64,000 nt of DNA, taken from the NCBI GenBank assembly GCA_964467905.1, contig CAYXSY010000003.1, positions 30,159-94,158 of the forward strand. The letters run 5' to 3'. Made by a program: the position numbers and the translations under genes. Source of the stretch: an uncultured Planctomycetales bacterium (GTDB lineage: Bacteria > Omnitrophota > Gorgyraeia > Gygaellales > Profunditerraquicolaceae). This document shows, in pieces, positions 12,808-53,825 of the stretch. The notes under the pieces are model-generated. The model did not search any database. It was not told the DNA's origin and saw only the letters and a program-made list of their open reading frames with translations. The first letter of the stretch is position 1, and every line of letters starts with the position of its first letter.

Positions 12808-12814
12808 TAGTCCT

Positions 12815-12848
12815 TGACAATATACATACTATACAGTATACTATGTAT
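12815..12848 (+). promoter_or_regulatory. promoter (TTGACA-16-TATACT) overlapped by a 13+1+13 near-perfect palindrome (ATACATACTATAC A GTATACTATGTAT) = candidate operator
   Basis: -35 hexamer at 12815-12820. Palindrome at 12822-12848 has one mismatch. Lies directly upstream of the MerR-like gene RBS AAGGAGGT. Confidence 0.5.
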
Positions 12849-12867
12849 AGTTAAGGAGGTGATTGCC

Positions 12868-13242
12868 TTGTGCCCATTACGTAATTTTTTAACATCAGCC
12901 GATGTGGCAAAAGCGCTTAAGGTTCCGAAAACTAATTTATTTCTTTGGGAAGAAAAGGGCAGGATTCCGAAAGCACGCAGAGATCCTGTAAGTGGATACC
13001 GCGTATACACAGAAGAAGATATCATTAAGATAAAAAAAGTAATAGAAGGAGGGGATATGGGAGGGTTGACTAGCTGGGTTAAAGCAGGTGAAGTTAGTTC
13101 TGAGGCATGGAAGTATATTAAATCTAGGTTCCCGGGTAAGTATTCAAAGTTGAAGAGAGATATTAAAGCTTGGGGAATCGATAAGGTTAAAATTGAATTT
13201 GCTCAAGGAGTAAGGCCGGTACAGATATCAATATCTTTATAA
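12868..13242 (+). CDS. MerR-family HTH transcriptional regulator (excisionase/Xis-like fold)
   Basis: HTH segment LTSADVAKALKVPKTNLFLWEEKGRIPKARRDPVSGYRVYTEEDIIKIKKV matches the MerR N-domain pattern. A TTG start 7 nt after the RBS AAGGAGGT is preferred over the annotated ATG at 12814. Confidence 0.55.
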   Translation: MCPLRNFLTSADVAKALKVPKTNLFLWEEKGRIPKARRDPVSGYRVYTEEDIIKIKKVIEGGDMGGLTSWVKAGEVSSEAWKYIKSRFPGKYSKLKRDIKAWGIDKVKIEFAQGVRPVQISISL

Positions 13243-13726: not shown

Positions 13727-13945
13727 ATGAGAATAAATGAAAAAACAATAAAACAGGTTCTACGAGACCGAGGACTAAGGCAGCAGGATTTTGCTAAAGC
13801 AATTGCTATCAGTCCGGAGTTTTTTTCACGGTTAGTTAAAAACCGCGTGACGTTGACGTTTAATATGGGCTTGAAAATTTCGCAAGCTCTAGCTGTCAAG
13901 CCGGATAAGATTATCCAAACTAAAGACGGAGGAATGCATGTTTGA
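13727..13945 (+). CDS. XRE/Cro-family HTH regulator
   Basis: 72 aa. HTH segment QQDFAKAIAISPEFFSRLVKNRVTLTFNMGLKISQAL. Confidence 0.6.
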   Translation: MRINEKTIKQVLRDRGLRQQDFAKAIAISPEFFSRLVKNRVTLTFNMGLKISQALAVKPDKIIQTKDGGMHV

Positions 13946-15461
13946 TGCAGGGGCGGTGGTAGCAAAACTCACTTTAGACAGATCTGATTTTGAAAAATCT
14001 CTCCAATCTATCACCAATGCGACAGCGCGCATTGGGAAAAGCTTCCAGAAGGTTGGGCAGGATATCCAGCAAGTCTCGAGACAACTATCCGTTGTCGCGC
14101 GTAACACAGCTTTCTTCGGTACAGCAATAACAGGAGGTTTGGTCGCAGCGTTTAAGAGTGCAGAGAAATATTCTAACTCCGTGCGTCAGGAAATGGAGCG
14201 GCTTAATAATATTTTTATCGCCTTTAGGGTTTCTATCGCAGAAGCGCTTCTGCCGGTTATGCATAGGTTAAGCAATGTTCTGGCAGACCTGTTGAATAGG
14301 TGGAATGCGCTTAGTCCTCAGATGAGGGAAGCAATCCTGCGTATGACTTTTATGTCTGGGGTAGTTCTATTATTGGGAGGCACAATCGCGGGGGTGGTAT
14401 TAAAGATTTGGCAGATGATCGGGGCATTAGGGGGGCTGTTAGGTAGGTTGTTGACTTTTGCAAGTGTCCATCCGGTGATCTTGGGGATTACGGCTGGAAT
14501 TATCGCTTTAGGATATGCTATCACAAAATTTAATTTAGCGGTGCCGATACTTAATGCCGTTGAAATAGCTACTACTTCTCTGGCGATTGCCATAAATCAG
14601 CTGATGATCTCGGTCCTAAGTGCTGTCAAGATAGGCCTTCAATCGGTTGATTATCTTGGAATTATTACTGGGAAGATTCAGAAATATGCTATCGATACCA
14701 TGAATACCCTGCAAGAATTAAATACCCAATATTGGGTGCAGATACAGAATATATTTAAAAACGGTAAAGGCATTTTTGCTCAAGGTTATAATGATTTAAA
14801 GGAAACGATAGATAGCATAGTAGGTTTATTCAGGGATTTGGGCAATATTGAGATCAGGATCCCGCAGATCATGGAGAGCATAAGGACATTCAGTGAGGGG
14901 TTGCGGGATGGCCTTAATAAGTCGATACGGTCCCTTATGGACTGGGGAACGACTGCGGAGAATATCGTTGTAGGAGTGGTGAATAATATGCGGAATATGT
15001 TTAGCGATTTCTTTTATAACGTGTTTAAGGGTCAGCTTGATGATGCGATGGATGTTTTCGCGGAATTCGGTAATTATATCCTTAAAACAATAGCGCAGAT
15101 AATTGCTGATATCATTGTGTTGAAGATAGCCGCTGGTTTTGGCAATCTCTTCGCTCCGACGGCTAATATCGCTAATATGGGAAAAGTCCTCATTGCGCCT
15201 GCAGGATATGCCGGTTTTGCCGAAGGGACAGATCGTGTCCCTTATACCGGAATGTATAAGGTTCACGAAGGAGAAAAGGTAATTCCAAAATACGACGCAT
15301 CGAAAGAGCAGGTAATTCAGCTAGAGATTGTTAATTTATTTGGCGATGATATTGTTGCGGCTTCTTTGCAAAGAAGAAAGTCGGCAGCTGCTATTATAAA
15401 TGTGGTGAATCAAGATTCATTACGCAATGGCATTATTCGAAGAGAGGTAAAACACAGATGA
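13938..15461 (+). CDS. phage tail tape-measure-like protein (short, 507 aa)
   Basis: N-terminal tape-measure-like region (IGKSFQKVGQDIQQVS...TAITGGLVAAFKSAEKYSNSVRQEME). Central hydrophobic/glycine-rich segments are typical of TMPs. Confidence 0.5.
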   Translation: MFDAGAVVAKLTLDRSDFEKSLQSITNATARIGKSFQKVGQDIQQVSRQLSVVARNTAFFGTAITGGLVAAFKSAEKYSNSVRQEMERLNNIFIAFRVSIAEALLPVMHRLSNVLADLLNRWNALSPQMREAILRMTFMSGVVLLLGGTIAGVVLKIWQMIGALGGLLGRLLTFASVHPVILGITAGIIALGYAITKFNLAVPILNAVEIATTSLAIAINQLMISVLSAVKIGLQSVDYLGIITGKIQKYAIDTMNTLQELNTQYWVQIQNIFKNGKGIFAQGYNDLKETIDSIVGLFRDLGNIEIRIPQIMESIRTFSEGLRDGLNKSIRSLMDWGTTAENIVVGVVNNMRNMFSDFFYNVFKGQLDDAMDVFAEFGNYILKTIAQIIADIIVLKIAAGFGNLFAPTANIANMGKVLIAPAGYAGFAEGTDRVPYTGMYKVHEGEKVIPKYDASKEQVIQLEIVNLFGDDIVAASLQRRKSAAAIINVVNQDSLRNGIIRREVKHR

Positions 15462-16373: not shown

Positions 16374-16649
16374 ATGATTGAAACGTTTGCGTTGACACAT
16401 ATTGAGGACACATTGATCCAGTTTGAAACCGGATTTGATTATGATCTCTGGACTACAAAGCAGATTCGGAAATATACCGGCTTGAAATATCAATTTCTCC
16501 ACTCACTTTGGAAACGTGGGGTCATCAGTTATCCTGAGCGGAAAATAGGCGGGAATTTAGTTTGGACGCCGATAGAAGTATACGAGATGTTAATGCAGGT
16601 AAAAAACTACATTAGAAAGAAAATCGGTCACTATGGATATTACAGTTAA
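16374..16649 (+). CDS. hypothetical protein, possible DNA-binding (element-encoded)
   Basis: 91-aa ORF immediately upstream of, and overlapping, the replication gene. Confidence 0.3.
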   Translation: MIETFALTHIEDTLIQFETGFDYDLWTTKQIRKYTGLKYQFLHSLWKRGVISYPERKIGGNLVWTPIEVYEMLMQVKNYIRKKIGHYGYYS

Positions 16650-18270
16650 GCATTTGCAGGAGTTTGAAAAGTCAGGGATCTCCGCTGAATTTGCCGCTAA
16701 ATATTTCCGTTCCCTTACCCAGGAAGAGGCCTCAAAAAAATATAGCTCACCATGTCCCGGATGGGAAGTGCTATATCCGCAATCCAATTACTCGAAATTT
16801 AAACCCGATAATCCAAGAAACAAGTCGCAGAAATACATCAACCCTAAAGGTGTGCCTCTTGATTTGCTAATTACTTTTAAAGCCCAGGAAGCCCTTAATA
16901 ACATAAATATATCGATATTTCTCATTGAGGGGGAAAAAAAAACAGTTTCTGCTGAGGAAAATTTTGGATGGGCCGCAATCGGACTGCCGGGAGTAAATGG
17001 CCAGCCGGAAGACAAACTTGCTTCTTTGAATTTTGCCGGGCGCATTTGCTATATTTGCTTTGACGCGGATAAGAATAAAAAACAATACAAGAAATCTCCT
17101 GTTATCGATGCAGAAGCGCGCCTGGCCCGGGCACTCACTTTGAAGGGCGCTAAAGTCAAGATTATCAACCTTGAAAAGAGCTTCGGCAATGGTCTTGATG
17201 ATCAAATTGTAAAGTTTAAAGCCGATGGAAACCTTAATGACCTGAAAAACCGGCTCTTGAAACAAGCTGTTGATTTCGCTCCTGAGCCCTTGCCTTTATC
17301 CTTAACAGAATTTTTGAAGAAAGATATCCCACCTATTGAATATTACGTGCAGGGCATCTTGCAAAAAGGCGGCAGGACCATGATCAGCGCTCCGACAAAT
17401 ATCGGAAAATCATTCTTCCTGCAAAACTTGGCTTTGGCCGTTGCATCCGGGAACGCAGATTTTCTCGGGAAGTTTAAGGTCAGTCCTGCTTCAGTGCTTT
17501 ATCTGGATATGGAAATGGGCGAGCCAGCGCTTAAAGAACGCTTTACGCGCATGATAGGGGAGAATACAGCTGATAACCTTTTTGTACAATATGCCTGCGG
17601 GCTAGATCTGCTTGAAAATGAGTCCCAGTTCAAAGTTGAATTTTGGCTCCAGAATCGTAGGCCGGATATTTTAATTATCGATTCCATTGGTGATGCTTGG
17701 ACTGGAGACGAAAACGACAAGCAGGAAGTCGCTAAGCTCGAGAAATATCTTAATTATATTAAGGACAAGTTTAAAATATCTATTATATTCTCACATCATT
17801 GGCGTAAGGCCTCAAAAGAGAATAACCGGGGCCCGGAAATGGCCGCAGGAAGCTATAAAATCGGCGCCTGGGTTGAAAATCAGCTATCATTGCAAGGCGC
17901 TGATTGTAAGAGCGTAACTCTTACCTGGGAGAAAGCGAGAAACGCACTTAAGCCGCCACCTATTCTGATCGGCTTGGATCCGGATACTCTTTGTTTCAAG
18001 TACATAGGGGACTATGAATCAAAATTCAGTGAGGATATGCTGGAAAAGGTTTTTGTGGCTTATGGCCAGGAAGAAGCTCCGCTTTCAAAGCTTGTGGAAT
18101 TAGCGGACGAAATGGCAGAACGCAAGGAATTGCCTGTTAAAGGCCGGAGTATAAGGGGATATTTCATGGAGAAGACCCAGAGATTTGAGGTTTGGCAGAA
18201 AGAAAACAAACCTAAAGCGCCCTGGTTTGTCAAAAGAAAAGGATTAAATACCGAAAATGAGCTTTTCTAA
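16633..18270 (+). CDS. primase-helicase-type replication protein (Toprim-like N-domain + RecA-like P-loop domain, AAA_25/RepA-like)
   Basis: Toprim-like segment FLIEGEKKTVSAEENFGWAAIGLPGVNG...CFDAD. P-loop ISAPTNIGKSFFLQNLALAVASG. Walker B LYLDMEMG. Confidence 0.6.
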   Translation: MDITVKHLQEFEKSGISAEFAAKYFRSLTQEEASKKYSSPCPGWEVLYPQSNYSKFKPDNPRNKSQKYINPKGVPLDLLITFKAQEALNNINISIFLIEGEKKTVSAEENFGWAAIGLPGVNGQPEDKLASLNFAGRICYICFDADKNKKQYKKSPVIDAEARLARALTLKGAKVKIINLEKSFGNGLDDQIVKFKADGNLNDLKNRLLKQAVDFAPEPLPLSLTEFLKKDIPPIEYYVQGILQKGGRTMISAPTNIGKSFFLQNLALAVASGNADFLGKFKVSPASVLYLDMEMGEPALKERFTRMIGENTADNLFVQYACGLDLLENESQFKVEFWLQNRRPDILIIDSIGDAWTGDENDKQEVAKLEKYLNYIKDKFKISIIFSHHWRKASKENNRGPEMAAGSYKIGAWVENQLSLQGADCKSVTLTWEKARNALKPPPILIGLDPDTLCFKYIGDYESKFSEDMLEKVFVAYGQEEAPLSKLVELADEMAERKELPVKGRSIRGYFMEKTQRFEVWQKENKPKAPWFVKRKGLNTENELF

Positions 18271-18712: not shown

Positions 18713-20317
18713 ATGGGAAGATATAGACCAAAGGAATCTTATCTCGGTAGAACTAGAGAGAAGCGGGCTGCACAATTAGCCAATTTGCGCTTTGGACCGA
18801 TTAGGCGTAGTAAGTCAGGACCTATACCATCATCGCCCCTGGGAGCGCCCGAAAACAACCCTTTTGACCCTATTTACAAGGATGATCCCATCCGCTTTAT
18901 TGAGGATCATTTCTACCTTACTCCGGAACGCTGTTTGATTGTATTAGACGACTGGCAAAAACAGATACTTAGGCAGATCTTTGAGCGTGACCCTACGACC
19001 GGGCTAAGACGGTATACTATGGCCGTTGTCTCAGCGCCTAAAAAAACAGGTAAGACTTCGTTGGCTGCTGCGATTATCTTGTGGTTTCTGGTGCATGGCG
19101 AGCTTGAGGGTGAAATTATTATGGCTGCGTACTCCGGGAATCAATCGACCTATGTCGTGTATAAGAAGCTATGCCGTAGTATCCGGATGAATAGGCATTT
19201 ATTAAAAGACCTCGCAATCAACAAGGATATTGTCGAGAATAAAAGGACAGCAACAACGGCGCGTGTTGTATCGGTAAGCTCTAGCGTCGCGGGTCTAAAC
19301 CCTAACCTCGTCTTGTTTGATGAGCTTCACGCGTACAGGGAAGTAGATAGCAATATGTATAGGGACTTCTTTGATGAGTTGACTGTTTCACCGACTCGCA
19401 AAGAGCCACTTTGCCTTATCACTTCATACGCCGGCACGGGCCAGGATACGCTTTTTTATGAGATATACGAGAAAGGCCTTGCCGGCACGGATCCGAAGAT
19501 GTTTTTCTTTTGGAGTCATGATCCGTTTTTATCCCCGCGCATGACGAAAGAGATACTTGAGGATAAGCGCAATAAACATCATCCGAATACTTTCGCCCGT
19601 TTGTTTGAGAATCGCTGGACCCAAGGCGAAAAGCAGTTTATCGATATGGTCGATTATGACAAGTGCGTTGATTCTTCGCACGCTCCGCTATTTGAGGACT
19701 TTCACAAAGAACTCGCGGTTTATTTAGGCATTGATATCGGCGTTAAGGATGATTGCAGCGCTGTCGTCGCCGTCGCAAAACAGGTTGAGAAGATCGTGCT
19801 CATTCAACACCGCATTTGGCGGCCACGCCCTAATGATCCAGTGATCATCGAGGACGTGGAGAATTATATCTATGATCTACATTGTAAATTTCGCGTTGCT
19901 CAGGCGCTTTTTGACCCTTCGCAATGCCGGGAAGCAGAGCAAAGGCTAAAGCAAAGAGGCGTTAATATGGTGGAGTGCATCCAGGCGCAAGGCCCGAACA
20001 TCGAAGCGGCGCAGAATCTATATCACCTTCTCCGTAGCGGGAAGCTGAAACTTTACAAGGCAGATGATCTGCGCCAGCATCTGCAGCATGCGGTTGTCCG
20101 TGAATCTGCGCGCGGTTTTCAGATAGAGAAGAAGTCGCCGTCCAAAAAGGTTGACGCTGCGGTGGCCCTGGCTATGGCTTGTCTTGCCGTGATCCAGGAC
20201 GCTTCAGTTGAGGCCGAGGTAAAGGTGGCAGATTGGAATTGGAAAGGTGACGAATCATCCTCGCCGGGGAGGGGAGGAGTTTTGAGCGGAGATTGGCTGC
20301 TTGCAGATGACAGATAA
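18713..20317 (+). CDS. phage terminase large subunit
   Basis: 534 aa. N-terminal ATPase with Walker A-like VVSAPKKTGKTSLAA and Walker B LVLFDELHAY. C-terminal nuclease-like region with acidic residues (GIDIGVKDD). Confidence 0.6.
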   Translation: MGRYRPKESYLGRTREKRAAQLANLRFGPIRRSKSGPIPSSPLGAPENNPFDPIYKDDPIRFIEDHFYLTPERCLIVLDDWQKQILRQIFERDPTTGLRRYTMAVVSAPKKTGKTSLAAAIILWFLVHGELEGEIIMAAYSGNQSTYVVYKKLCRSIRMNRHLLKDLAINKDIVENKRTATTARVVSVSSSVAGLNPNLVLFDELHAYREVDSNMYRDFFDELTVSPTRKEPLCLITSYAGTGQDTLFYEIYEKGLAGTDPKMFFFWSHDPFLSPRMTKEILEDKRNKHHPNTFARLFENRWTQGEKQFIDMVDYDKCVDSSHAPLFEDFHKELAVYLGIDIGVKDDCSAVVAVAKQVEKIVLIQHRIWRPRPNDPVIIEDVENYIYDLHCKFRVAQALFDPSQCREAEQRLKQRGVNMVECIQAQGPNIEAAQNLYHLLRSGKLKLYKADDLRQHLQHAVVRESARGFQIEKKSPSKKVDAAVALAMACLAVIQDASVEAEVKVADWNWKGDESSSPGRGGVLSGDWLLADDR

Positions 20318-20418
20318 ATTTGGCGCAGGGGGTCTTCTTAAAATATAGGTAGTCTTGTGACCGAGCTATCTATATCTACCCCTGCGCTATAAACAGGTCA
20401 AGAAAAGGAGATGGGAAA

Positions 20419-20808: not shown

Positions 20809-20810
20809 AA

Positions 20811-21119: not shown

Positions 21120-21121
21120 CT

Positions 21122-21304
21122 ATGGAAAAACGTTTCATCAGCCCATTTGAGTTATCACAATATCTAGGCCTTAAGCCAGATACCATTTATGCGTGGATCT
21201 GGAAAAAGAAAATCCCTTATCATAAATTTGGTCGTTTGGTTAAATTCGACGTGCGCAAAATCGATAAGTGGGCTGAGGAACATTTGGTTAAAGAAATGAG
21301 TTGA
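21122..21304 (+). CDS. AlpA/Xis-family excisionase-type HTH protein
   Basis: 60 aa. FISPFELSQYLGLKPDTIYAWIWKKKIPYHKFGRLVKFD matches the AlpA/phage excisionase pattern. Overlaps the int start. Confidence 0.6.
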   Translation: MEKRFISPFELSQYLGLKPDTIYAWIWKKKIPYHKFGRLVKFDVRKIDKWAEEHLVKEMS

Positions 21305-22416
21305 AAAATAAGCACTTACAAGTTAAACTATATATGCAAAACAGGAGGCTGCGCAGGGTGGGCATATACTTAAAGGGCGAAGACTGGTATTTGGATTATT
21401 ATGTCAATGGCCGCCGTAAAAGAGAAAAAGTAGGTCCTTCCAAAAAGCTTGCCGAAATAGCCTTTAAGAAACGCAAAGTCGAGATAGCAGAAGGCAAATT
21501 CCTGGATATTAAAAAAGAATACAGGGTTAAGTTTGACGATTTAGCCTCAATGTATCTCGAGCTGCACGCCAAGCCGAATAAAAAATCCTGGCACTCTGAC
21601 GACGATACCATAAAGCAGCTCAAGAAGTATTTTGGCGGCCGGTATCTTTCAGAGATTACGCCCTTGTTCGTTGACAAATTCAAGATGGACCGCGCTAAAA
21701 AAGTCTCTCCGGCCACAGTTAACCGTAATCTTGCTTGTCTGAAATGCATGTTTAATAAAGCAATCATGTGGGGCAAGGCAAGTGTTAATCCGGTAACGCA
21801 AGTTCGGCTCTTTAAGGAAGATAATAAACGGATCCGTTATCTTGAGAAAGAGGAGATCGTAAAACTCTTAGCGAATTGCCGCGGCCATTTAAAGGCAATC
21901 GTAATTGTTGCCATAAATACCGGCATGCGCAAAAGCGAGATCCTGGGCCTTAAGTGGCATGATTGCGATTTTCGGCGCAGTATAATATATTTATATAATA
22001 CCAAGAATGGAGAGAAGCGGGAAGTGCCAATGAATAACCAGGTCAGATCTACTTTGATTAAAGTCCGCAAGCACCCAGAGAGTCCTTATATCTTCTGCAA
22101 TAGGAAGGGCATACCGATAAAAGATATCAAAAAATCTTTCTTTACAGCGCTCGATAAAGCGGGTATAATACAGTTTCATTTTCATGATTTACGGCATACT
22201 TTTGCTTCGCATTTGGTAATGTCCGGAGTCGATCTTAATACAGTTAGGGAGTTAATGGGTCACAAGTCGCTGGAAATGACGCTCAGGTATAGCCACTTAT
22301 CCCCGGATCATAAGAAGCGTGCGGTGGATGTTTTAGGGCAGCGAATGGACACTATTTGGACACCAGAGCCTATTACTCAAAAGGCACCAGAAAAGCCCAT
22401 CTCCGTAACTAATTGA
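21301..22416 (+). CDS. int: tyrosine site-specific integrase
   Basis: 371 aa. N-terminal SAM-like domain. Catalytic-domain residues R (GMRKSEI), HDLRHTF, and LMGHKSLEMTLRYSHL with the catalytic Tyr. Ends 24 nt before tRNA-Met. Confidence 0.85.
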   Translation: MKNKHLQVKLYMQNRRLRRVGIYLKGEDWYLDYYVNGRRKREKVGPSKKLAEIAFKKRKVEIAEGKFLDIKKEYRVKFDDLASMYLELHAKPNKKSWHSDDDTIKQLKKYFGGRYLSEITPLFVDKFKMDRAKKVSPATVNRNLACLKCMFNKAIMWGKASVNPVTQVRLFKEDNKRIRYLEKEEIVKLLANCRGHLKAIVIVAINTGMRKSEILGLKWHDCDFRRSIIYLYNTKNGEKREVPMNNQVRSTLIKVRKHPESPYIFCNRKGIPIKDIKKSFFTALDKAGIIQFHFHDLRHTFASHLVMSGVDLNTVRELMGHKSLEMTLRYSHLSPDHKKRAVDVLGQRMDTIWTPEPITQKAPEKPISVTN

Positions 22417-22440
22417 TAGCGTTAATATTGTGATATCTTA

Positions 22441-22512
22441 GGGCCCATAGCTCAGCGGTAGAGCAGGTGACTCATAATCACTTGGTCGGAGGTCCGATCC
22501 CTTCTGGGCCCA
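22441..22512 (+). tRNA. tRNA-Met (anticodon CAT; elongator-type or tRNA-Ile2-type, cannot be distinguished by eye)
   Basis: Manual cloverleaf: acceptor GGGCCCA/TGGGCCC, D-arm GCTC-AGCGGTA-GAGC, anticodon arm GGTGA-CTCATAA-TCACT, T-arm GGAGG-TCCGATC-CCTTC, discriminator A. No encoded CCA. Confidence 0.8.
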
Positions 22513-22582
22513 TTCTGTTCTAAAGGCAAGAGATAGCGGTACAGCTGTAAAGAAGTTCTTCCTGGTTTAGTAATTTTTACCG

Positions 22583-22656
22583 GGGCATTTAGCTCAGTTG
22601 GTTAGAGCGCTACATTCACATTGTAGAGGCCAGAGGTTCAAGTCCTCTAATGCCCA
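22583..22656 (+). tRNA. tRNA-Val (anticodon CAC)
   Basis: Manual cloverleaf: acceptor GGGCATT/AATGCCC, D-arm GCTC-AGTTGGTTA-GAGC, anticodon arm CTACA-TTCACAT-TGTAG, T-arm AGAGG-TTCAAGT-CCTCT. Confidence 0.8.
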
Positions 22657-35950: not shown

Positions 35951-37369
35951 GTGATGAAAAAAATATTAAAAGTCCATTTAATCCTGATTCTGTTGCTAGT
36001 TGTCGGAATAGGCCATGTTTATTCTGCGGCAACAAGCATAACGGCTACGCCTGTTACTTCGGGAAATGAGCTTAATTTCCAAGTCAACCCCGGTATAGCT
36101 CCCAATCCTTGCGAAGTCAGAATAAGAACATTTGGAACCACTGGTAGGTATGAGATTAGGCAGGAACTTCTAATGGCTCCTTCAAGCGGCGCCAATCAGA
36201 TTGACTGGCGGTATTTTTCTATGCGCGCTTTAAGAGAATCGCCTAGCGTCAGAGGTACATTACATGCTGCTCAAGATACACCTTTCCCCTTAAATGCTTT
36301 CAATCCTTTATATACAAATACAGCCGGAACATCGGATAGTTTTGTTTTGGTTTATTACGTAAGTTTACCGGCCAATATTCAGCCCGGATCATACCGCGGA
36401 AGAATCCGGTATACGCTCGCGCCAATGCAGGCGGCAGATCAGCAATCATACGCATTTCTTAATGTTTTAGTTAATGTCGGACAAAGTACGCTAACAAGCG
36501 TACAGAAACCACAGATAGAGATAACTCCGATTGACGCTTCAAGTGTCATATCTTTAAATCCAACCAGAGAAGATAAAGCCTCGGCTGATGTGGAATTCAG
36601 AATGAATGTCAAGCCGAACAGTTTATTCAGTATCACGCAGGTCGCCAGAGATCCGATTATGTCCTCAAGCGGTGCGACACTTGATGACAGTGTTATTAAT
36701 TTTAAGACCCAGAATATTAGGGCAGGCATGGGGGTAGCCGATAAAGGCCTGTCTTCTGTACCTAAAAAGATTTTTACTTCCGGTCCAGGAGGACAGTGCC
36801 CGGATAGTTTTGTATTGACTTATAGCTTAGGCGATATGTCAGGTTATAAGGCCGGACGCTATAGAACAAAAATCCAGTATTATCTTGATCAATCCGGCAA
36901 ACCGATGACTTTAATAAAAACTTTGGATATACAAATTGAAGTAGAGAGCATATTTGAGTTAACCATAACCCCCCAAGACCAGAAGGGGATCTTAGAATTC
37001 CGTGATATTAAATCCGGTGATGAGCCTAAAACCAGCGAAATTGTTATTGAAGCAAAAACTAACACCGGCAAACAGTATCAGGTTAATCAAAACGTATATT
37101 CAAGCCTGACTAATAAATCCGGAGATGCGATATCTAATGACTACTTTTTTATTAAAACTGATAAAGCTGACGGAAAGAAATTATCAGGTGCTTTGAAGTA
37201 TCCGAATATGGAAAAGGTAAAAACAGGAGATTCAACTTTGTTTATCTCTGATATTAAAGGAAGCCCGGCGGCATTCAAAGTTATCTATAAATTGGATTTA
37301 CCCAGAGAAGTAAATATTACAAGTGGAGACTACTCAACGCGCATTACTTATTCACTTTCAGAAATATAA
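35951..37369 (+). CDS. secreted fimbrial-subunit-like protein (large; candidate tip/adhesin subunit)
   Basis: 472 aa. Signal peptide. Beta-rich. C-terminal GDYSTRITYSL resembles a donor-strand/penultimate-Tyr pilin C-terminus. Confidence 0.35.
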   Translation: MMKKILKVHLILILLLVVGIGHVYSAATSITATPVTSGNELNFQVNPGIAPNPCEVRIRTFGTTGRYEIRQELLMAPSSGANQIDWRYFSMRALRESPSVRGTLHAAQDTPFPLNAFNPLYTNTAGTSDSFVLVYYVSLPANIQPGSYRGRIRYTLAPMQAADQQSYAFLNVLVNVGQSTLTSVQKPQIEITPIDASSVISLNPTREDKASADVEFRMNVKPNSLFSITQVARDPIMSSSGATLDDSVINFKTQNIRAGMGVADKGLSSVPKKIFTSGPGGQCPDSFVLTYSLGDMSGYKAGRYRTKIQYYLDQSGKPMTLIKTLDIQIEVESIFELTITPQDQKGILEFRDIKSGDEPKTSEIVIEAKTNTGKQYQVNQNVYSSLTNKSGDAISNDYFFIKTDKADGKKLSGALKYPNMEKVKTGDSTLFISDIKGSPAAFKVIYKLDLPREVNITSGDYSTRITYSLSEI

Positions 37370-37393
37370 ACTTTTTTAGAAGGGAGGATTTAA

Positions 37394-38134
37394 ATGACTA
37401 ACAAAAACAAACTTAAAAATAAAAATACGAAAGGGGGTGAAAAAATGAAAACATTGAGATTACTTATATCGTTAACCGTGCTTTTAATGGGTGTATCGAG
37501 CCTTGCTCTTGCCGCTACTTCACAGCAGATTACAATTAAAGCTACAGTTCCGGCTCCTGGGGTAAGCTTGCCTACAACCAAGACCATCATAAAATGCCCC
37601 GGTACCATGCCTGCATCTGGCGATCCCTGGTCGTATCCCGGCTGCGTTAAGGATTTAACCGAGATTAACTTTGGGACACTGACAAACGTACTTACCGACG
37701 GATCAAACGCGGGTTGTTTTTACGCTCCAGATTACTTTATAGTTTATCTTTATCCTGATGTTTGGGGTGGGATAGGTTATGAGGTAAAACAAAGCTTTGC
37801 ATGGGCAGGTACAGGTTTGCCTTCTAATTCGCTGGTATTCACAGCTGTGTATAGCAACGATGACCATTATGATGGTAAACCGGCACAAGGTCCTAAACCT
37901 ACAGGCGCTACCTTAGGCAACAATGGTAATTCGCAAGCTGCAACAGGAGGAGCAAAAACAGTTTATAAGAGCGAGAAACCGGGAGAACCGCGTATCTTTC
38001 GCGCTCAATACGGACTGCCTCCTTATCCAGCTGCAGGAGAAGCTGATCCGTTTGCAGGTTGGGCACCGGTTCCTGTAACACAGGCACAAGGTACCTATAC
38101 CGGTACATTAACCCTTACTATAAGCTCTTACTAA
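37394..38134 (+). CDS. secreted pilin-like subunit (candidate major subunit)
   Basis: Signal peptide (MKTLRLLISLTVLLMGVSSLALA; an alternative start at 37445 is possible). Two Cys near the N-terminus. C-terminus AQGTYTGTLTLTISSY has a G..Y.GT.T.T..Y pattern typical of chaperone-usher pilins. Confidence 0.4.
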   Translation: MTNKNKLKNKNTKGGEKMKTLRLLISLTVLLMGVSSLALAATSQQITIKATVPAPGVSLPTTKTIIKCPGTMPASGDPWSYPGCVKDLTEINFGTLTNVLTDGSNAGCFYAPDYFIVYLYPDVWGGIGYEVKQSFAWAGTGLPSNSLVFTAVYSNDDHYDGKPAQGPKPTGATLGNNGNSQAATGGAKTVYKSEKPGEPRIFRAQYGLPPYPAAGEADPFAGWAPVPVTQAQGTYTGTLTLTISSY

Positions 38135-38328
38135 ACGAAATTATTTAGTTAAGGGCTTATAGTGTTTATTGGAGGATTCGGCCTTATTAGGTCCGGTAGT
38201 GGGTGGGGTCGTCCGTTTGCCGGATTCTAATCTTGCGATTTGCTTATTTTTTATAAAGCATATCGCAGGCGATAAAGCGGTTAAATAGTAATTAGCCGCA
38301 GTATATAATTTTTGGAGGGAAGGGAGAA

Positions 38329-39219
38329 GTGTTGCCAAAATATATTAAGTATTTATTTTTGTTTTTTTTATGTTTTTATTCATCTTTAACTACAGCCTAT
38401 GCTGCACATTTTAGCCTGGACCAAGCCAAGGTAAGGCTAGTTATCCCGCCCGGAGGCTCCCAAACAGGTACGATAAGAATTGATAATATCTCGGGAGATA
38501 ACCTCGATATCCGTGTTTATTGGGAAGATTGGGCTTATGCGCAAGGCAATAACGGCTCAAAAGATTTCCTGGCTTCTAACAGCACTAGTTATAGTGCGGC
38601 AAAATTTGTTACTTTCTCTCCGGCAGAATTCGTTATACCTCCGTTTGGAAGACAAATTGTAAATTATGTAGTTAGGCTTCCCGATGATGCACAAGGCGGC
38701 TATTACGGCGTGTTATTTTTTGAAAGCACGCTCGGTAAATATATTTCTTCTACGGGCTCAGACACTACGGAAAGACAGGCAGGCATAGATGTGGCTTTAA
38801 GAATGGCTTCGCTCTTCTATATAGAGACTAAAGGTAAAAATGAACGTAAGGCCGAAATAAATAATCTTACAATTTCAGGTAATAAAGAAGGCGCACCGCT
38901 TTTAATACAGGCAGACTTTTTAAATTCAGGAGACGTTGATCTAACCTCCGGAGGTTCATTTAATATTATGGACAATAAGGGCATGGTTTATGCCAGGGGC
39001 AAATTCAACGATATCTATACTTTGCCTAAAGATAAAGCTAAGTTGAATGCGGAATGGAAAGACGGGATTCCTCAAGGAACATATTCTCTTGTTGCTACTT
39101 TCGATATCGGGAAAGCTCAAGAGGAAGCCGGACTAAATAGGGGGCCGGTAATTGTTAAGGAGGCGAAGATACAAATAGGACCGGCAGGCGAAGTCATTTC
39201 AGTGCGTCCACTGGATTAA
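38329..39219 (+). CDS. PapD-like periplasmic pilus chaperone (tentative)
   Basis: 296 aa. Signal peptide with GTG start and RBS. RLVIPPGGSQTGTIRIDNISGDNLDIRVYWEDW matches the chaperone N-domain pattern (R.v...........N.......W). C-terminal Ig-like domain. Confidence 0.4.
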   Translation: MLPKYIKYLFLFFLCFYSSLTTAYAAHFSLDQAKVRLVIPPGGSQTGTIRIDNISGDNLDIRVYWEDWAYAQGNNGSKDFLASNSTSYSAAKFVTFSPAEFVIPPFGRQIVNYVVRLPDDAQGGYYGVLFFESTLGKYISSTGSDTTERQAGIDVALRMASLFYIETKGKNERKAEINNLTISGNKEGAPLLIQADFLNSGDVDLTSGGSFNIMDNKGMVYARGKFNDIYTLPKDKAKLNAEWKDGIPQGTYSLVATFDIGKAQEEAGLNRGPVIVKEAKIQIGPAGEVISVRPLD

Positions 39220-42950: not shown

Positions 42951-45900
42951 TTAATACAAGTATATTTCTATTTCCTTAATCTGGCAGGACCTTATCTGTT
43001 CGCAGTAAGGAGATGGTATTATGTCGGAGCGCAGAATGATGTCTTTTCCGTCTTTATCCTTAAAACATATTTTATTAATCTTTACGGCGGACTTGCCGAA
43101 CGTATCTTTGCGCTTAGGGTTATGATAAGTTACCGTAATATGCTTCAAGAATTTAAACCGGTACAAGCCTTTTTTATCAAAAAACCAGGAAGCCAGAATG
43201 GGGGTGAATTTTAAATTAAGCTGTTTTTTAGCATCAAGGGAGAATGGTTTCGCTCCGATATTCATAATCAACCAGATATTAATGAATTCTATTGTGGACC
43301 CGGAAAGACGGGCTACGTATCCGTTACCGTGGAGTCTTTCGTCAGGGAAAGCGCTTGATACCAGAAAGCTTGAGTTTTCTATAATGCTGCGGCCGTATTT
43401 TTTGGGGTTAAGAAACGGTATAAAGATATTCTTGAAGTCTGCATAGAATTCTTCATATAACCCATTCTTTATGAGCTCGAGCATATATTTATATTCCATA
43501 TGCAGCCATATCGATTCGTTTTCAAGCCATCCCGGAGTAAAAGCAGTGCATCTGCCGATTTCCTGGGGCATATTCTTTAAAGAAGCAGTAACTTTATACA
43601 TACGTAGTTTCTTATCAAAGAGTCCGCTGCTTTTTGTAGCCTGATATATCGATTTTGCCATTTTTAAATCTTTTGCCAACCTTAAGGCATGCACCTGGCC
43701 TTCTAAGAATAGAGGGAGCTTTTGTTGAGAGAAAGAAACAGGAAAGACATGTTCGCTGCCAATTTTTTTATGTTCGTTAACCTGGTTTATAAAATAAGCA
43801 GTGTAGAGACTTTTATTCTTATCTTTGGCTTTAAGTATCGCTGCGTCTATTCTTTTGATTGAGTCTGCAATTATAGTTGATAATTCCGTCAAGCTAACTT
43901 CCAGGCCCTCTCCGCTGAAGCCAAGTTTTGTTTTTAAACGGTATTCTTCTTTTAAGGTAGTAGCCTTATCCCAATACCAATATTCTTTCTCTGCTGAATT
44001 ATCCTGCAGATACTCCTTAACTAACCGATGAAGAGAGAAGAGGAGCTCACCAATTTCACGCGTAACATCTATTTTGTTTCTGTCAGTCATACCGATACAA
44101 TCTTTTATAAATATAGCTAATCTTTTAAGCTCAATGGTTTCGCAAGAAGATGAGCCAAACATTGCAGGTAAGCCGTTTAAAGCATCGTACCAGTTTGGTT
44201 TATCTGATTCCATCTCTATACCGCATCCGCAAGGATCGATAGACGAGAGTTTATTTACAAAAATACAGAGCAGTTTATCCATAAGGGTTGTCTGATAAAT
44301 GCTGCCCTTACCGTACTGTGCTCTTAAAACATGGGGCAATTCCTGTCTTTTATGGATAAGTTCTTTCTTTTCTGCATCCTGGGCAACTGAGTGTAGTTGT
44401 TGAATACGCCCGTTTCTGATTACATATTTCACAGCGCGCGGCCGTACTACTTCCGTATTGTCAAAAAACGTGAATACCGGTTTGTCAAACACAAGTTTTT
44501 CTAACTTTTCAGGATAAAGAGCGCGATAGTTTTCTAAGAGATCAAGATTATAATGCCAGTGGTCTATCCAGAAACCTTCGCCGTGTTCGGCTTCCTGTAT
44601 TTTAGCCGAATGCGACAGAAGTATATTGATAAAATCACTATGAGATGATCTGGGTGTTATTTTTGACTCCTGCAGAAATAACGCTATTTCACCGGGAGTA
44701 AAAATGCGCCCACCGATATGCGATATTATGCTCTCCAGGTCTTTTTGGCTAAGAATCACCGATAAGCTTCTCTTAAGCTCATCTGTGGCTACTATTTTAT
44801 ATGATACGCCCTTAACTACTAACGGATTGAATCCGTCTGCCTGAATTAAATTCATAAAACTAATAATATTTTCATCGCCAATTTCCGGATTAAACCATAT
44901 GTCGCAGCGTCTATTTTGGTTGACATCGCGGTAATTGCCGTTTCCTTGAGAGAAATACGTCGGCTGTATCTGGAATTTATTGTAATCTCTTTCCAGATCT
45001 CCGTGCTTGCGGGAGTATAGATAGAATACCGAATTAGAGGTTTTTGTCTTAAAAATAACAGGGTACCCGCCGCGCAAAATATTATCTAAATAAGTTTGTT
45101 TAATGTATAGGTTAAGATTCGGAGCGTTACTGTATGTCTCTACGTCCGAGAGAAGAGAAGAGATAATCTGGCGGTTTTCATTCTTCTTGCGGCTAAGGTA
45201 CTGCGCATCTGCTATTCTTGGTATTGACAAATTAAGCGCATCCTGGCTGCGCATATATCCTATTATCGCATAGAAATTCTTGGTTTCTTTTGGCTTGAGG
45301 CCAGCGTTTAAATATAGAAAACCGCAAGGTGTCTTGCTGCAAATAGTCTCATTCTTTGGAGGCGTAAAATTGTCGCATGATAAAAAGTTAATAGGATAAG
45401 AAAAATCGGTATTCTGGCCAAAGACATTCTCAGGATCAATTAAAGGCTTAATAATCTTAAGCCTGCTGTTTTCATAATGGAACCCTAAATAAAAATTGCC
45501 TTCTTTGATATGCAACACTTCCGGCCTATCCGTAGGATCAACCCCGAGCTTATAAAAAGGGACTCCTTTGTCAAGATTGTCAACCTTCATCCAGGCCTCT
45601 ATGGTACGGCTGAGTTTCTTTAAAAACAGGTTTGCGGTGCCAAAAGGCACTATTTGAGGCAGGCCATCTAAGATTTCAATATCTATCTTTTTGGCCCCGG
45701 TATTTTCTATGGAAACTATTCTTGCTAATCCCGCATAACTATCTTGCGGAATGGTAAAATACTCGACTTTTATTTTTAATTTTAAAGTTTTATTTTCTTC
45801 TTCGATTTTTAGAGAAACCGCATCGGAAGACATGCTATTGGTAATATCAAAAGGGCTATTGGCAAAATCATTATGAAAAGGTTCATAAACAGCTGTGCGT

Positions 45901-46181
45901 CCGTTCTTGATTTTAATAAAGGTACGAAAACCCCTGCGAGAAGCAAGCTGCCAGGCTTTATTTGCGGGAAAAAACTCCAATATCGAGTGGTCTTTATCTT
46001 TTGTCCCGAAACTGACTATGCCTTGTGCCCTGTTGACATAAAAAGCCCATAAAGGAATACCATATTCTCCTGAAATCCCGGGGAAGAAATTGGCTAATGG
46101 TTTGGCAAAATTATAGTTTTGGATTATAAATTCGCCACCAGAGGTAAGTCTATATGAAGGTTTTTTAATTTTTTTATTCAT
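42951..46181 (-). CDS. large glycoside hydrolase/phosphorylase-like protein ((alpha/alpha)6-barrel, GH94/GH65-like superfamily; tentative)
   Basis: 1076 aa. N-terminal FPGISGEYGIPLWAFYVNRAQG pattern resembles phosphorylase-type beta-sandwich N-domains. No signal peptide. The only long minus-strand gene in the window. Confidence 0.3.
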   Translation of the reverse strand: MNKKIKKPSYRLTSGGEFIIQNYNFAKPLANFFPGISGEYGIPLWAFYVNRAQGIVSFGTKDKDHSILEFFPANKAWQLASRRGFRTFIKIKNGRTAVYEPFHNDFANSPFDITNSMSSDAVSLKIEEENKTLKLKIKVEYFTIPQDSYAGLARIVSIENTGAKKIDIEILDGLPQIVPFGTANLFLKKLSRTIEAWMKVDNLDKGVPFYKLGVDPTDRPEVLHIKEGNFYLGFHYENSRLKIIKPLIDPENVFGQNTDFSYPINFLSCDNFTPPKNETICSKTPCGFLYLNAGLKPKETKNFYAIIGYMRSQDALNLSIPRIADAQYLSRKKNENRQIISSLLSDVETYSNAPNLNLYIKQTYLDNILRGGYPVIFKTKTSNSVFYLYSRKHGDLERDYNKFQIQPTYFSQGNGNYRDVNQNRRCDIWFNPEIGDENIISFMNLIQADGFNPLVVKGVSYKIVATDELKRSLSVILSQKDLESIISHIGGRIFTPGEIALFLQESKITPRSSHSDFINILLSHSAKIQEAEHGEGFWIDHWHYNLDLLENYRALYPEKLEKLVFDKPVFTFFDNTEVVRPRAVKYVIRNGRIQQLHSVAQDAEKKELIHKRQELPHVLRAQYGKGSIYQTTLMDKLLCIFVNKLSSIDPCGCGIEMESDKPNWYDALNGLPAMFGSSSCETIELKRLAIFIKDCIGMTDRNKIDVTREIGELLFSLHRLVKEYLQDNSAEKEYWYWDKATTLKEEYRLKTKLGFSGEGLEVSLTELSTIIADSIKRIDAAILKAKDKNKSLYTAYFINQVNEHKKIGSEHVFPVSFSQQKLPLFLEGQVHALRLAKDLKMAKSIYQATKSSGLFDKKLRMYKVTASLKNMPQEIGRCTAFTPGWLENESIWLHMEYKYMLELIKNGLYEEFYADFKNIFIPFLNPKKYGRSIIENSSFLVSSAFPDERLHGNGYVARLSGSTIEFINIWLIMNIGAKPFSLDAKKQLNLKFTPILASWFFDKKGLYRFKFLKHITVTYHNPKRKDTFGKSAVKINKICFKDKDGKDIILRSDIIPSPYCEQIRSCQIKEIEIYLY

Positions 46182-52565: not shown

Positions 52566-53001
52566 AACACAGATAATAATACGCTTGGTTTTGTCTGTAT
52601 TTCTAGGTGGGTTAATAGGCTTTGAACGCCAGATACACCGCAGAACCGCCGGTTTTCGTACGCATATCCTGGTATCGCTTGGTTCCTGCCTTATAATGTT
52701 GACATCTTTATATGTTTTTGATATATATAGCAGTAAGGTTGATTTAGACCCTACGCGTATTGCCGCTGGGGTTATCACCGGAATAGGGTTTCTTGGCGCA
52801 GGAGCAATTATAAGAGATTCGCAGGGTATAATAGGGCTAACCACTGCTGCAAGTCTTTGGGTCGTAGCAGGTATAGGTCTGGCAATAGGGTGCGGATTTT
52901 ATACTGCAGGGATATTTACAACAGCACTTGCTTTAATATCGCTTTTTTTCTTAAGAAGAGTTGAGGAAAAAGTTATAAATAAGAAAGGAGGGGTAAGCTA
53001 A
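52555..53001 (+). CDS. mgtC: MgtC/SapB-family membrane protein
   Basis: 148 aa. Motifs GFERQ..RRTAGFRTHILVSLGS and GIGFLGAG. Confidence 0.7.
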   Translation: MLNETQIIIRLVLSVFLGGLIGFERQIHRRTAGFRTHILVSLGSCLIMLTSLYVFDIYSSKVDLDPTRIAAGVITGIGFLGAGAIIRDSQGIIGLTTAASLWVVAGIGLAIGCGFYTAGIFTTALALISLFFLRRVEEKVINKKGGVS

Positions 53002-53504
53002 TGGCTTTTAAGAAAAATACAGAAGAGAAAATCCTCGATGTAGATGCTGCTATGCAGGGAACATTAAGTTTCAAAGACGCGGTAAATTTACGTATTAACG
53101 GTAAATTTGAAGGAAAGCTTGATACAAAAGGGAATTTAACTGTGGGGCCGAGTGCGCAGGTATATGCGGATATGATTGGAGACAACATTATAATCGGAGG
53201 TAAGGTTAAAGGAAAGATAATAGCTAAGGAAAGACTTACCCTTCTTCCTACGGCAGTCGTAGAAGGCGACATATATCCCACGAGATTAAATATTGCCGAA
53301 GGGGCAATTTTAGAAGGCAGATGCATAATGCTCCATGATTTCCTAAATGCCGAACAATTAGCCAGATATCTGGAGGTAGATTTAAATTCTATCATGGAAT
53401 GGGCTAATTCCGGTAAAGTCCCGGGTTTTAAAGAGGGAGACGACTGGAAGTTCGAAAGAAAAGCTATTGATTCCTGGGTTTCAACAGGCAAAGTTAGCAA
53501 ATAA
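53001..53504 (+). CDS. bactofilin (beta-helical polymer-forming cytoskeletal protein) fused to a C-terminal excisionase-family HTH DNA-binding domain
   Basis: Residues ~20-115 carry bactofilin repeats (G.F.G.L...GNLTVG...IGGKVKGKIIAKERL...VEGDI...L.I.EGAILEG). C-terminus LNAEQLARYLEVDLNSIMEWANSGKVPGFKEGDDWKFERKAIDSWV matches the excisionase/MerR-like HTH pattern. Confidence 0.65.
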   Translation: MAFKKNTEEKILDVDAAMQGTLSFKDAVNLRINGKFEGKLDTKGNLTVGPSAQVYADMIGDNIIIGGKVKGKIIAKERLTLLPTAVVEGDIYPTRLNIAEGAILEGRCIMLHDFLNAEQLARYLEVDLNSIMEWANSGKVPGFKEGDDWKFERKAIDSWVSTGKVSK

Positions 53505-53510
53505 AACCTT

Positions 53511-53825
53511 ATGGCAGAAGAAAAATTACTTACGGTAAGAGACGTATCAATTGTTTTAGGGGTATCAGAAAGAGAAATCATGGAGCTTGCTGAATCAGGC
53601 AGGCTCCCTGCCTATAAAGTAGGCGGTGTATACTTACGTTTTAAACGCGAGCAGATAGATGAATTCAGAAAGACATTTAAACCCAGCCAATCATCAGTCT
53701 TACACCGGAGCAAAGAGAGCTCCGCTAAAGAAAAACTCAATGATTTCTTCTATTTTAATGACTTTTACATATTGAGCGCTTTAATTATTGCTGTTATATT
53801 ATTCTTTGTATTCCAAGGATATTGA
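53511..53825 (+). CDS. excisionase-family HTH protein with C-terminal transmembrane helix
   Basis: 104 aa. HTH LLTVRDVSIVLGVSEREIMELAESGRLPAYKVGGVYLRFKREQIDEF. C-terminal hydrophobic FYILSALIIAVILFFVF. Confidence 0.5.
   Translation: MAEEKLLTVRDVSIVLGVSEREIMELAESGRLPAYKVGGVYLRFKREQIDEFRKTFKPSQSSVLHRSKESSAKEKLNDFFYFNDFYILSALIIAVILFFVFQGY

Follow-up and report, generated by a model that had tools for sequence, protein, structure and literature searches.

Two adjacent genes encode a bactofilin–HTH fusion and a membrane-anchored HTH protein

The DNA analysed here is a stretch of 64,000 nucleotides (nt), hereafter the window, from contig CAYXSY010000003.1 (positions 30,159 to 94,158) of assembly GCA_964467905.1, which derives from an uncultured bacterium recorded as Planctomycetales and placed in the Omnitrophota by GTDB. 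It contains two adjacent genes of particular interest (Table 1): the first encodes a protein of 167 amino acids (aa), here called BacHTH, in which a bactofilin is fused to a domain of the winged helix-turn-helix type (wHTH), and the second encodes a protein of 104 aa, here called HTH-TM, with an N-terminal wHTH and a C-terminal transmembrane (TM) helix. The initial annotation of this DNA, made by reading the sequence, had described the 167-aa protein as a bactofilin core followed by an excisionase/MerR-type helix-turn-helix (HTH), and the next product as an HTH of the same family with a membrane anchor. Both descriptions hold. In BacHTH, the two domains exceed their Pfam gathering thresholds, with 83.8 bits for Bactofilin PF04519 (cut-off 27.9, E 1e-23, profile positions 2-97 of 98) and 36.4 bits for HTH_17 PF12728 (cut-off 27, E 6e-9), and the profile search thus recognises the C-terminal segment as an HTH. 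HTH-TM reaches 40.1 bits for HTH_17 against the same cut-off and ends in a strongly hydrophobic segment. With the NCBIfam model TIGR01764 ('excisionase family', cut-off 28.8), HTH-TM scores above the cut-off (39.4 bits) and BacHTH below it (21.0 bits).

The two genes are closely packed, the open reading frame (ORF) of HTH-TM beginning 6 nt past the BacHTH stop. At 53502-53513 they even share one frame, in which they are split by the TAA stop and two further codons (AAC CTT). On the other side, the overlap of the BacHTH start codon with the stop codon of MgtC indicates co-transcription, and probably translational coupling, with the upstream genes.

The gene pair is a conserved unit of the Omnitrophota

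A protein 100% identical to BacHTH is present in public data, and a search of 5.8 billion proteins with BacHTH retrieves 1,612 clusters (90% identity). Among the 120 clusters listed, all combine PF04519 and PF12728 within 166-182 aa and are 77-83% identical. Where such proteins are named, they are annotated either as 'Candidatus Omnitrophota polymer-forming cytoskeletal protein' or, by JGI, as 'excisionase family DNA binding protein': automated annotation records both domains and leaves them uninterpreted. No paper found in the literature that could be searched describes a bactofilin with a fused DNA-binding domain, whether of excisionase type or not, or treats bactofilins of the Omnitrophota.

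When every GTDB species is represented by a single genome, full-length fusions are found in 57 genomes, including a closed chromosome of 1.43 Mb. Nearly all of these genomes belong to the Omnitrophota, a few records being labelled Planctomycetales or Margulisiibacteriota. When 1.84 billion cluster representatives are scanned exhaustively with HMMER, 10,321 bactofilin-like sequences are obtained, and about 32 of the best 150 carry an HTH, the farthest being 37% identical; the sole name available for the distant fusion-bearing members is 'PVC group bacterium'. With P0148, the most divergent fusion, as query, only P0148 itself and plain bactofilins are retrieved, and no new phylum. In plasmid and phage collections searched by tblastn, bactofilins and HTH proteins are found only separately and never fused, the best plasmid match, on Leptospira lbp1, being a plain bactofilin. 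The fusion architecture is thus lineage-specific and, in that lineage, near-universal.

Homologues of HTH-TM form 1,121 clusters, assigned to the Omnitrophota where they are named. The order TsaD-(MgtC)-fusion-HTH/TM is kept in all 57 genomes wherever the contig is long enough, and the gaps between the fusion and its partner are mostly of 1-40 nt (range 1-313 nt). As many of these gaps are not multiples of three, the shared frame of the two genes in the window appears to be a coincidence, and a programmed read-through giving a bactofilin-HTH-HTH-TM chain was rejected. Even the most divergent fusion (P0148, 37% identity; locus L082, contig CAZMGY010000013.1, 2289-3946) is followed, 10 nt on, by a gene for a 97-aa HTH_17 protein with a C-terminal TM helix. 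All these results show that the gene pair is a conserved unit.

The neighbours of the pair are housekeeping genes (TsaD, MgtC, LarB and genes of the acetyl-CoA pathway), conserved in the 57 genomes, and the genes upstream of the pair in the main lineage include an S41/PDZ protease and a polysaccharide deacetylase. No further bactofilin gene and no ParAB genes were found in the 64-kb window. Neither this setting nor the plasmid and phage searches connect the locus with a plasmid, an origin or ParAB; anchoring of a plasmid or an origin had been among the suggestions of the initial annotation. The upstream neighbours differ at locus L082, where the pair directly follows the genes of a membrane protein with a SPOR domain and of a TPR/PDZ protein; a link to the septum or to the cell wall is possible there.

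Within the close clade, mean identity is highest for the fusion (77%), followed by MgtC (71%), LarB (68%), AcsC (60%), TsaD (57%) and HTH-TM (56%), and within the fusion the wHTH is conserved as well as the beta-helix (80% vs 78%). The fusion is therefore genuine and under strong purifying selection. No other gene nearby is as well conserved across the phylum, which implies that its role is important and possibly essential.

The bactofilin core and the N-terminal peptide of BacHTH

The AlphaFold2 (AF2) model of BacHTH, built from an alignment of 27 sequences, has a mean predicted local distance difference test (pLDDT) score of 84.7. Its residues 11-105 form, with pLDDT >90, the compact right-handed beta-helix that is characteristic of bactofilins, and Foldseek matches this predicted core to BacA (2n3d, TM-score 0.80, root-mean-square deviation (rmsd) 2.3 Å) and to TtBac (6rib, TM-score 0.76; 6ria also matched). 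Leu104 aligns with BacA F130 and TtBac F105, which are critical for polymerisation, and its column is hydrophobic in 58 of 58 orthologues (L35/F17/I5/M1). On profile, predicted fold and hydrophobic end-face residue, BacHTH is a bactofilin.

The core is preceded by a short basic peptide with one hydrophobic residue. Its sequence is MAFKKN in BacHTH, MAFKKK among orthologues of the close clade and MALRRR or MRRRR among those of the distant one. In the AF2 model the N-terminal octapeptide is disordered (pLDDT <50). The membrane-targeting consensus of bactofilins is MFSKKKK, a peptide that is weak singly and acts cooperatively when displayed on the polymer (PMC12448750). The N-terminus of BacHTH is similar to it in character, not identical, and this likeness is suggestive of membrane binding.

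Two relatives of the core deserve mention. A second bactofilin without an HTH, a paralogue that is 52% identical to the fusion core and has a short basic C-terminus (…IIKPKRKP), is encoded at locus L058 (positions 2-300 of contig JAUWBJ010000050.1), in the same metagenome-assembled genome (CSMAG_1317) as the fusion locus L053; since both reside in one genome, mixed polymers are possible. The 253-aa protein P0151 belongs to the same bactofilin subfamily (N-terminal ...MIDVTANMQGTISFSDPVNLRIQGSFEGKL), and its C-terminal region looks PilZ-like by eye (RRQWPR ... NISTGG). If this call is correct, this bactofilin clade would exchange C-terminal effectors, either an HTH or a receptor of cyclic di-GMP (c-di-GMP).

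The fused wHTH has a predicted fold of DNA-binding type and a conserved acidic surface

In the AF2 model, the C-terminal domain of BacHTH displays the a1-a2-b1-b2-a3 topology of a wHTH (helices 117-124, 128-137 and 153-161; strands 143-145 and 148-152), and its linker to the core is very short, with about 3-5 residues (12 in the distant clade). Foldseek matches it, with an rmsd of 1.2-2.4 Å, to RdfS, BldC, Pukovnik Xis, Tn916 Xis, a RacA-DNA complex and MerR-family regulators. By sequence, its closest solved relative is BldC (E 0.003, with an unambiguous HMMER alignment), followed by RdfS (E 0.01).

In the recognition helix of BldC, Lys26 and Arg30 read the DNA, and Thr27, Thr29, Trp31 and Lys33 contact phosphates (PMC5859096); in its wing, His46, Arg47 and Arg48 enter the minor groove (PMC5859096). 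RacA likewise reads DNA, through a YpG contact, with the Arg equivalent to BldC Arg30 (PMC5859096). In BacHTH, the equivalent of Arg30 is Glu133, a position held by Glu or Asp in 58/58 orthologues, Lys26 and Lys33 are replaced by Asn129 and Asn136, and Arg22 is replaced by Glu125 (57/58). The wing has the form K-E-G-x-x-W-K, with Glu145 again Glu or Asp in every one of the 58 orthologues. The net charge of the domain ranges from -4 to 0 across all 58 (mean -2.7), to be compared with +6 for BldC and +4 for the genuine excisionase encoded in the same window, 31 kb from the pair, which provides an internal contrast to the acidic fused HTH. Some basic residues are still present in the wing region (K139, K144, K150, R153), and the fused domain lacks the basic DNA-contact surface formed in BldC by K26, R30, K33, R47 and R48.

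The conservation of its acidic residues indicates a selected surface and not drift, and suggests that purifying selection maintains a functional surface for something other than DNA. Judged from these residues, direct DNA binding by the fused wHTH is doubtful, and the initial proposal that the polymer itself binds DNA finds no backing at the positions where BldC touches it.

Related domains also occur in tandem elsewhere: P0195 (231 aa) and P0243 (135 aa) consist respectively of three and two basic HTH_17 domains related to the fused one. In them, a domain whose usual multimers on DNA are head-to-tail is arrayed covalently.

The tail-anchored partner

The C-terminal hydrophobic stretch of HTH-TM, FYILSALIIAVILFFVFQG, has a mean Kyte-Doolittle value of 2.45 over 19 residues, vs 1.92 for the best TM segment of MgtC, and this segment is hydrophobic in all HTH-TM orthologues. 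The AF2 model (pLDDT 74.5) comprises a wHTH (residues 6-55) of the same a1-a2-b1-b2-a3 topology, a disordered region (56-69), a helix (70-82), a kink at N83 and the TM helix (84-101), the pLDDT being about 50 at residues 61-70 and about 93 for the TM helix. As only about 3 residues follow this helix, HTH-TM is expected to be a tail-anchored protein whose HTH faces the cytoplasm. The top Foldseek match is the RacA-DNA complex 5i44, followed by BldC and Xis, and the complex of CbpM with the J-domain of CbpA (3ucs) is matched too. Taking both wHTHs together, the superpositions on BldC, Xis, RdfS and RacA have an rmsd of 1.0-2.4 Å.

The wHTH of HTH-TM contains five invariant residues (T8, Y35, G39, R43 and F44), and several positions of the DNA-contact type are kept: T8, K/R21 (45/55), K36, the wing Arg R43 (55/55) and K45. 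It is followed by a linker that measures 19-36 residues across orthologues, with a mean net charge of +3. Its lower acidity relative to the fused wHTH, the retention of the wing Arg and of several backbone-contact positions, and the basic linker make HTH-TM the likelier DNA-contacting element of the two. DNA binding is hence more plausible for HTH-TM than for the fused domain.

Next to the membrane lies an aromatic motif, DFFYFNDFY, in which D78, F79, F82, D84, F85 and Y86 do not vary in any of the 55 orthologues examined, F80, Y81 and N83 varying slightly. The conservation of this motif exceeds that of the HTH in HTH-TM, and the motif does not co-vary with the fusion protein; in the partner encoded at locus L082 its place is taken by GLWQWVKNSS. 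Possible roles for it are those of an interfacial helix, of a binding site for the bactofilin or of a site for oligomerisation.

The two wHTH domains co-vary

The fused wHTH and that of HTH-TM are 35% identical (BLASTP, E 1e-9), and are thus paralogues. Their relation was analysed by a mirror-tree test in 49 genomes, using a partial Mantel correlation with TsaD distances as the single control gene. After this control, wHTH-wHTH distances remain correlated, with a partial r of 0.42 in the close clade and of 0.45 overall (permutation p <= 0.0005). Between the tail of HTH-TM and the two parts of the fusion, no correlation is left (r 0.01-0.07). These correlations suggest that the two wHTHs evolve together, through mutual binding or through a common ligand.

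A model for the pair and its alternatives

All these results lead us to propose, tentatively and with a probability of about 0.42, that a membrane-bound bactofilin polymer clusters its tail-anchored HTH partner where membrane and nucleoid meet. The bactofilin core would polymerise without nucleotide, as expected from its family and from its hydrophobic interface residue, and the polymer would lie on the inner face of the membrane, held, by analogy with BacA, by many weak N-terminal MAFKKK peptides. Each subunit would then present a folded wHTH of the MerR/Xis class at the place where other bactofilins have a disordered, client-binding tail. The partner, a predicted bitopic membrane protein, has the general form of bactofilin clients, which typically span the membrane once and contact the bactofilin with a cytoplasmic tail (PMC12448750). 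The fused wHTH would pair with the wHTH of HTH-TM, with its basic linker or with both, probably head-to-tail as in BldC, RdfS and Xis, and the polymer would in this way gather HTH-TM into a multivalent patch. HTH-TM would be the main DNA contact, nucleoid DNA being held at the membrane by avidity and not by tight sequence-specific binding, and the acidic fused wHTH would act mainly as an adaptor or a modulator. The model builds on what the data show of architecture, predicted folds, conservation, operon organisation, charges and co-variation; polymerisation, membrane binding, the wHTH-wHTH contact and DNA tethering are the parts of it that we infer. Of the DNA-tethering scaffold suggested by the initial annotation, the architecture is accordingly retained, and direct DNA binding by the polymer is not.

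Several observations weigh against this model. The N-terminal peptide departs from MFSKKKK, and its Phe is gone in some distant orthologues (MRRRR...). The 3-5-residue linker between the end face of the beta-helix and the wHTH might hinder tail-to-tail polymerisation. The wHTH of HTH-TM has a net charge close to zero (+0.5, range -4 to +3), with D/E/N/K at the equivalent of Arg30, so that its own DNA binding, as judged from these residues, is uncertain too. The partial Mantel test is liberal under shared phylogeny, and was run with one control gene. Finally, the charges of the two wHTHs shift in parallel across clades, both being more basic in the distant clade, and do not compensate each other, which slightly favours a common ligand over mutual binding.

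These parallel shifts would suit a common ligand such as DNA, and with it a scheme in which both wHTHs bind DNA directly and independently, the bactofilin polymer being a nucleoprotein filament, its partner a second, membrane-fixed binder, and the whole a minimal chromosome–membrane tether. Both domains score above the HTH_17 threshold, and their close structural relatives (BldC, RacA, Xis, RdfS and the MerR family) are all DNA-bound proteins. The fold family forms cooperative, weakly specific filaments on DNA (PMC5859096, PMC11963761), a tendency that a polymeric scaffold would reinforce; multivalency can offset a weak affinity of the monomer, as for the membrane-targeting peptide of BacA, and K139, K144, K150 and R153 are conserved in the wing region of the fused domain. 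We nevertheless regard this scheme as rather unlikely, for the fused domain never exceeds a net charge of 0 in the 58 orthologues, against +4 to +6 in the excisionase and BldC, the base-reading Arg30 is always Glu or Asp, Lys26 and Lys33 are Asn, the wing is acidic at Glu145 throughout, and the selection acting on these acidic residues points to a surface for another purpose. It is likewise rather unlikely that the bactofilin polymer itself organises DNA, its regularly spaced wHTHs forming with the tail-anchored paralogue a nucleoprotein filament on the membrane, by which the ultra-small cells of the Omnitrophota would anchor or partition their chromosome. If it were true, this would be an adaptor-free, nucleotide-independent and dedicated chromosome–membrane tether without a described counterpart in bacteria. 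At the other extreme, DNA might play no part at all, both wHTHs being protein-protein adaptors and the tail-anchored protein a membrane receptor or nucleator of the bactofilin, with a role in envelope, shape or division. The conserved, acidic surface of the wHTH would fit, as would the wHTH-wHTH co-variation, and there are precedents: the cytoplasmic HTH of RodZ binds MreB and not DNA (PMC6052060), the MerR-like fold of CbpM, found among the fold matches of the partner, is bound to the J-domain of CbpA, and most characterised bactofilins are morphogenetic, with bitopic membrane clients. The SPOR and TPR/PDZ neighbours of the divergent lineage, and the S41/PDZ protease and polysaccharide deacetylase upstream of the pair in the main lineage, point in the same direction. 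This DNA-free reading is rather unlikely, however, as the periplasmic part of HTH-TM, about 3 residues long, gives it no reach of its own to the wall machinery, as a bactofilin with a membrane-targeting peptide would need no membrane receptor, and as HTH-TM keeps several canonical positions of DNA-backbone contact, the invariant wing Arg and a basic linker.

A regulatory switch was also envisaged, in which HTH-TM is a membrane-tethered transcription regulator and the acidic fused wHTH a decoy that competes with DNA, so that expression is coupled to bactofilin assembly. It has a model in Bacillus subtilis, where bactofilins bind the MerR-like BacR, inhibit its DNA binding and keep it membrane-bound (PMC13649987), the linkage of BacR and bactofilin genes being widespread in Firmicutes (PMC13649987), and the acidic wHTH would complement the neutral HTH and basic linker of its partner. 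We find such a switch quite improbable here, because the pair lies within a housekeeping operon without an obvious promoter of its own, with a start overlapping the MgtC stop, so that no autoregulated unit is evident, because a permanent membrane anchor would require targets at the membrane, and because neither protein matches DUF4004 in the Pfam scan (E <= 1). Barely credible, finally, is an artefact or a mobile remnant, that is, a missed stop, a frameshift or decayed excisionases of an integrated element. HTH_17 and TIGR01764 are indeed typical of excisionases, as the JGI label of homologues reminds us. The frame over 53340-53360, which the initial annotation had advised checking, is nonetheless intact, and it is conserved across more than 1,600 clusters and in the 57 genomes. 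Hundreds of independent assemblies agree in the length and frame of the fusion, which leads us to reject a frameshift or a missed stop. No integrase, att-like tRNA or phage gene is found near the pair, the synteny with TsaD and MgtC is conserved, plasmid and phage collections contain no similar fusion, and the real excisionase-integrase-tRNA unit of the window, 31 kb off, is different (60 aa, net charge +4).

Comparison with known systems

BacHTH shares with canonical bactofilins (BacA, TtBac) the beta-helix core, a hydrophobic equivalent of F130/F105 and an adjacent gene for a bitopic membrane protein, and its short basic N-terminus resembles the MFSKKKK consensus. It differs from them by its C-terminus, which in canonical bactofilins is a short or disordered tail and in BacHTH a folded wHTH of 50 residues on a very short linker. 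Unlike the clients of BacA, HTH-TM lacks a periplasmic enzyme domain.

The nearest functional analogue is the pair formed by BacR (YhbD, DUF4004) and the bactofilins BacE and BacF, since there too a MerR-like HTH protein is encoded beside bactofilins (PMC13649987). BacR binds BacE/BacF, is localised at the membrane in a bactofilin-dependent manner, and its DNA binding competes with bactofilin binding (PMC13649987). However, BacR is a soluble DUF4004 protein of about 210 aa, neither fused nor TM-anchored, whereas here one HTH is fused to the polymer and the other is anchored in the membrane. BacHTH and HTH-TM also differ from it in length and architecture, and a Pfam scan gives no match to DUF4004 (PF13171) at E <= 1 for either protein.

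The RacA-DivIVA system, in which RacA is described as a DNA–membrane tether (PMC6593407), likewise combines a MerR-like wHTH on a self-assembling domain with the tethering of DNA to a membrane scaffold, and RacA-DNA 5i44 is both the top fold match of HTH-TM and a match of the fusion. RacA differs in that it multimerises through a coiled coil, is basic, has an Arg at the BldC Arg30 position (Glu in the fusion) and reaches the membrane via DivIVA; no coiled coil is present in either AF2 model.

In Myxococcus xanthus, the BacNOP-PadC-ParABS system also uses a bactofilin scaffold to position chromosome-associated proteins, and the C-terminal region of the bactofilin is a functional extension there too. 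Neither ParA nor ParB bound bactofilin directly, PadC being the adaptor (PMC5703909), so that the contrast drawn by the initial annotation with known bactofilin systems is valid: the link to DNA is indirect in Myxococcus, whereas here the bactofilin chain itself contains a domain of DNA-binding type, and neither ParAB nor PadC is encoded nearby.

BldC, Xis and RdfS are the closest to the wHTHs by sequence (BldC E 0.003, RdfS E 0.01) and by fold (rmsd 1.0-1.9 Å), and wHTHs of this type oligomerise head-to-tail into filaments on DNA (PMC5859096, PMC11963761). They are, however, stand-alone and strongly basic proteins with Arg/Lys on recognition helix and wing, whereas the fused domain is acidic and without a recombinase partner; the pair does not reside on a mobile element with an integrase and an att site, as an excisionase would. 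RodZ-MreB offers another case of a bitopic membrane protein whose cytoplasmic HTH serves a cytoskeletal polymer, but RodZ has an XRE-type HTH and a large periplasmic domain, its polymer is the actin-like MreB, and no RodZ-type domain was found in either protein by the Pfam scan.

Two further candidates were discarded. MADS MAD1 (NF047737) is the best NCBIfam match of both proteins, but their scores of 43.6 and 38.0 bits lie far below its equivalog cut-off (80), and the PADLOC model mad1 gives only 14 and 26 bits. A weak match to the magnetosome protein MamR (E 0.09) is regarded as noise.

Other features of the window

The window also contains a phage-like integrated element (12814-22656), whose features are listed in Table 1 after those of the pair. 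Nearly all genes of the window lie on the + strand. The sole large minus-strand gene is an ORF of 1,076 aa (42951-46181) without Pfam match, and the ORFs of 472, 246 and 296 aa that neighbour it on the + strand, within 35951-39219, have no Pfam match either.

Table 1. Coordinates of the BacHTH/HTH-TM gene pair, its immediate surroundings and the phage-like element in the 64-kb window.
Feature	Position	Strand	Evidence or remark
BacHTH, bactofilin-wHTH fusion gene, 167 aa	53001..53504	+	ORF, Pfam
BacHTH N-terminal peptide MAFKKNTE, residues 1-8	53001..53024	+	candidate membrane-targeting sequence; orthologue alignment, charges
BacHTH bactofilin beta-helix core, residues 11-108	53031..53324	+	Pfam, AF2, Foldseek
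BacHTH C-terminal wHTH, residues 114-161	53340..53483	+	HTH_17, AF2, Foldseek, profile alignment to BldC
HTH-TM, tail-anchored wHTH partner gene, 104 aa	53511..53825	+	ORF, Pfam, NCBIfam
HTH-TM wHTH, residues 6-53	53526..53669	+	HTH_17, TIGR01764
HTH-TM variable basic disordered linker, residues 54-77	53670..53741	+	orthologue alignment, charges, AF2
HTH-TM aromatic juxtamembrane motif DFFYFNDFY, residues 78-86	53742..53768	+	orthologue columns
HTH-TM C-terminal TM helix, residues 85-101	53763..53813	+	Kyte-Doolittle, AF2
Shine-Dalgarno AGGAGG	52986..52991	+	9 nt 5' of the fusion start; direct sequence reading
MgtC gene		+	upstream of the fusion gene; TAA stop overlaps the fusion ATG by one base (TAATG)
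MerR-type HTH	12814..13242		phage-like element
Tape-measure-like protein	13938..15461		phage-like element
DUF3854+AAA_25 primase/helicase-like protein	16633..18270		phage-like element
Large terminase	18713..20317		phage-like element
Genuine HTH_17 excisionase, 60 aa, net charge +4	21122..21304		phage-like element
Tyrosine integrase	21301..22416		phage-like element; abuts tRNA-Met and tRNA-Val
tRNA-Met	22441..22512		
tRNA-Val	22583..22656		

Significance

Bactofilins are widespread, their clients are known in a handful of species, and links between them and the chromosome are known only via the adaptor PadC or, recently, via the soluble HTH regulator BacR. The module described here hard-wires a wHTH of the MerR/Xis type on every subunit of the polymer, pairs it with a membrane-anchored sister HTH, and is conserved throughout an uncultured phylum of nanobacteria. 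A function as DNA-binding cytoskeleton is not backed by the residues of the fused domain. The pair nevertheless looks like an undescribed membrane scaffold, whose fused domain may not touch DNA itself. As proteins of 167 and 104 aa are easily synthesised, the question can be addressed in vitro or in Escherichia coli without culturing the organism. If the ligand of the fused wHTH were DNA, the module would represent a new type of DNA-binding cytoskeleton; if it were the partner protein, the module would represent a new mode of client recognition by bactofilins, in which an HTH has been co-opted for protein binding.

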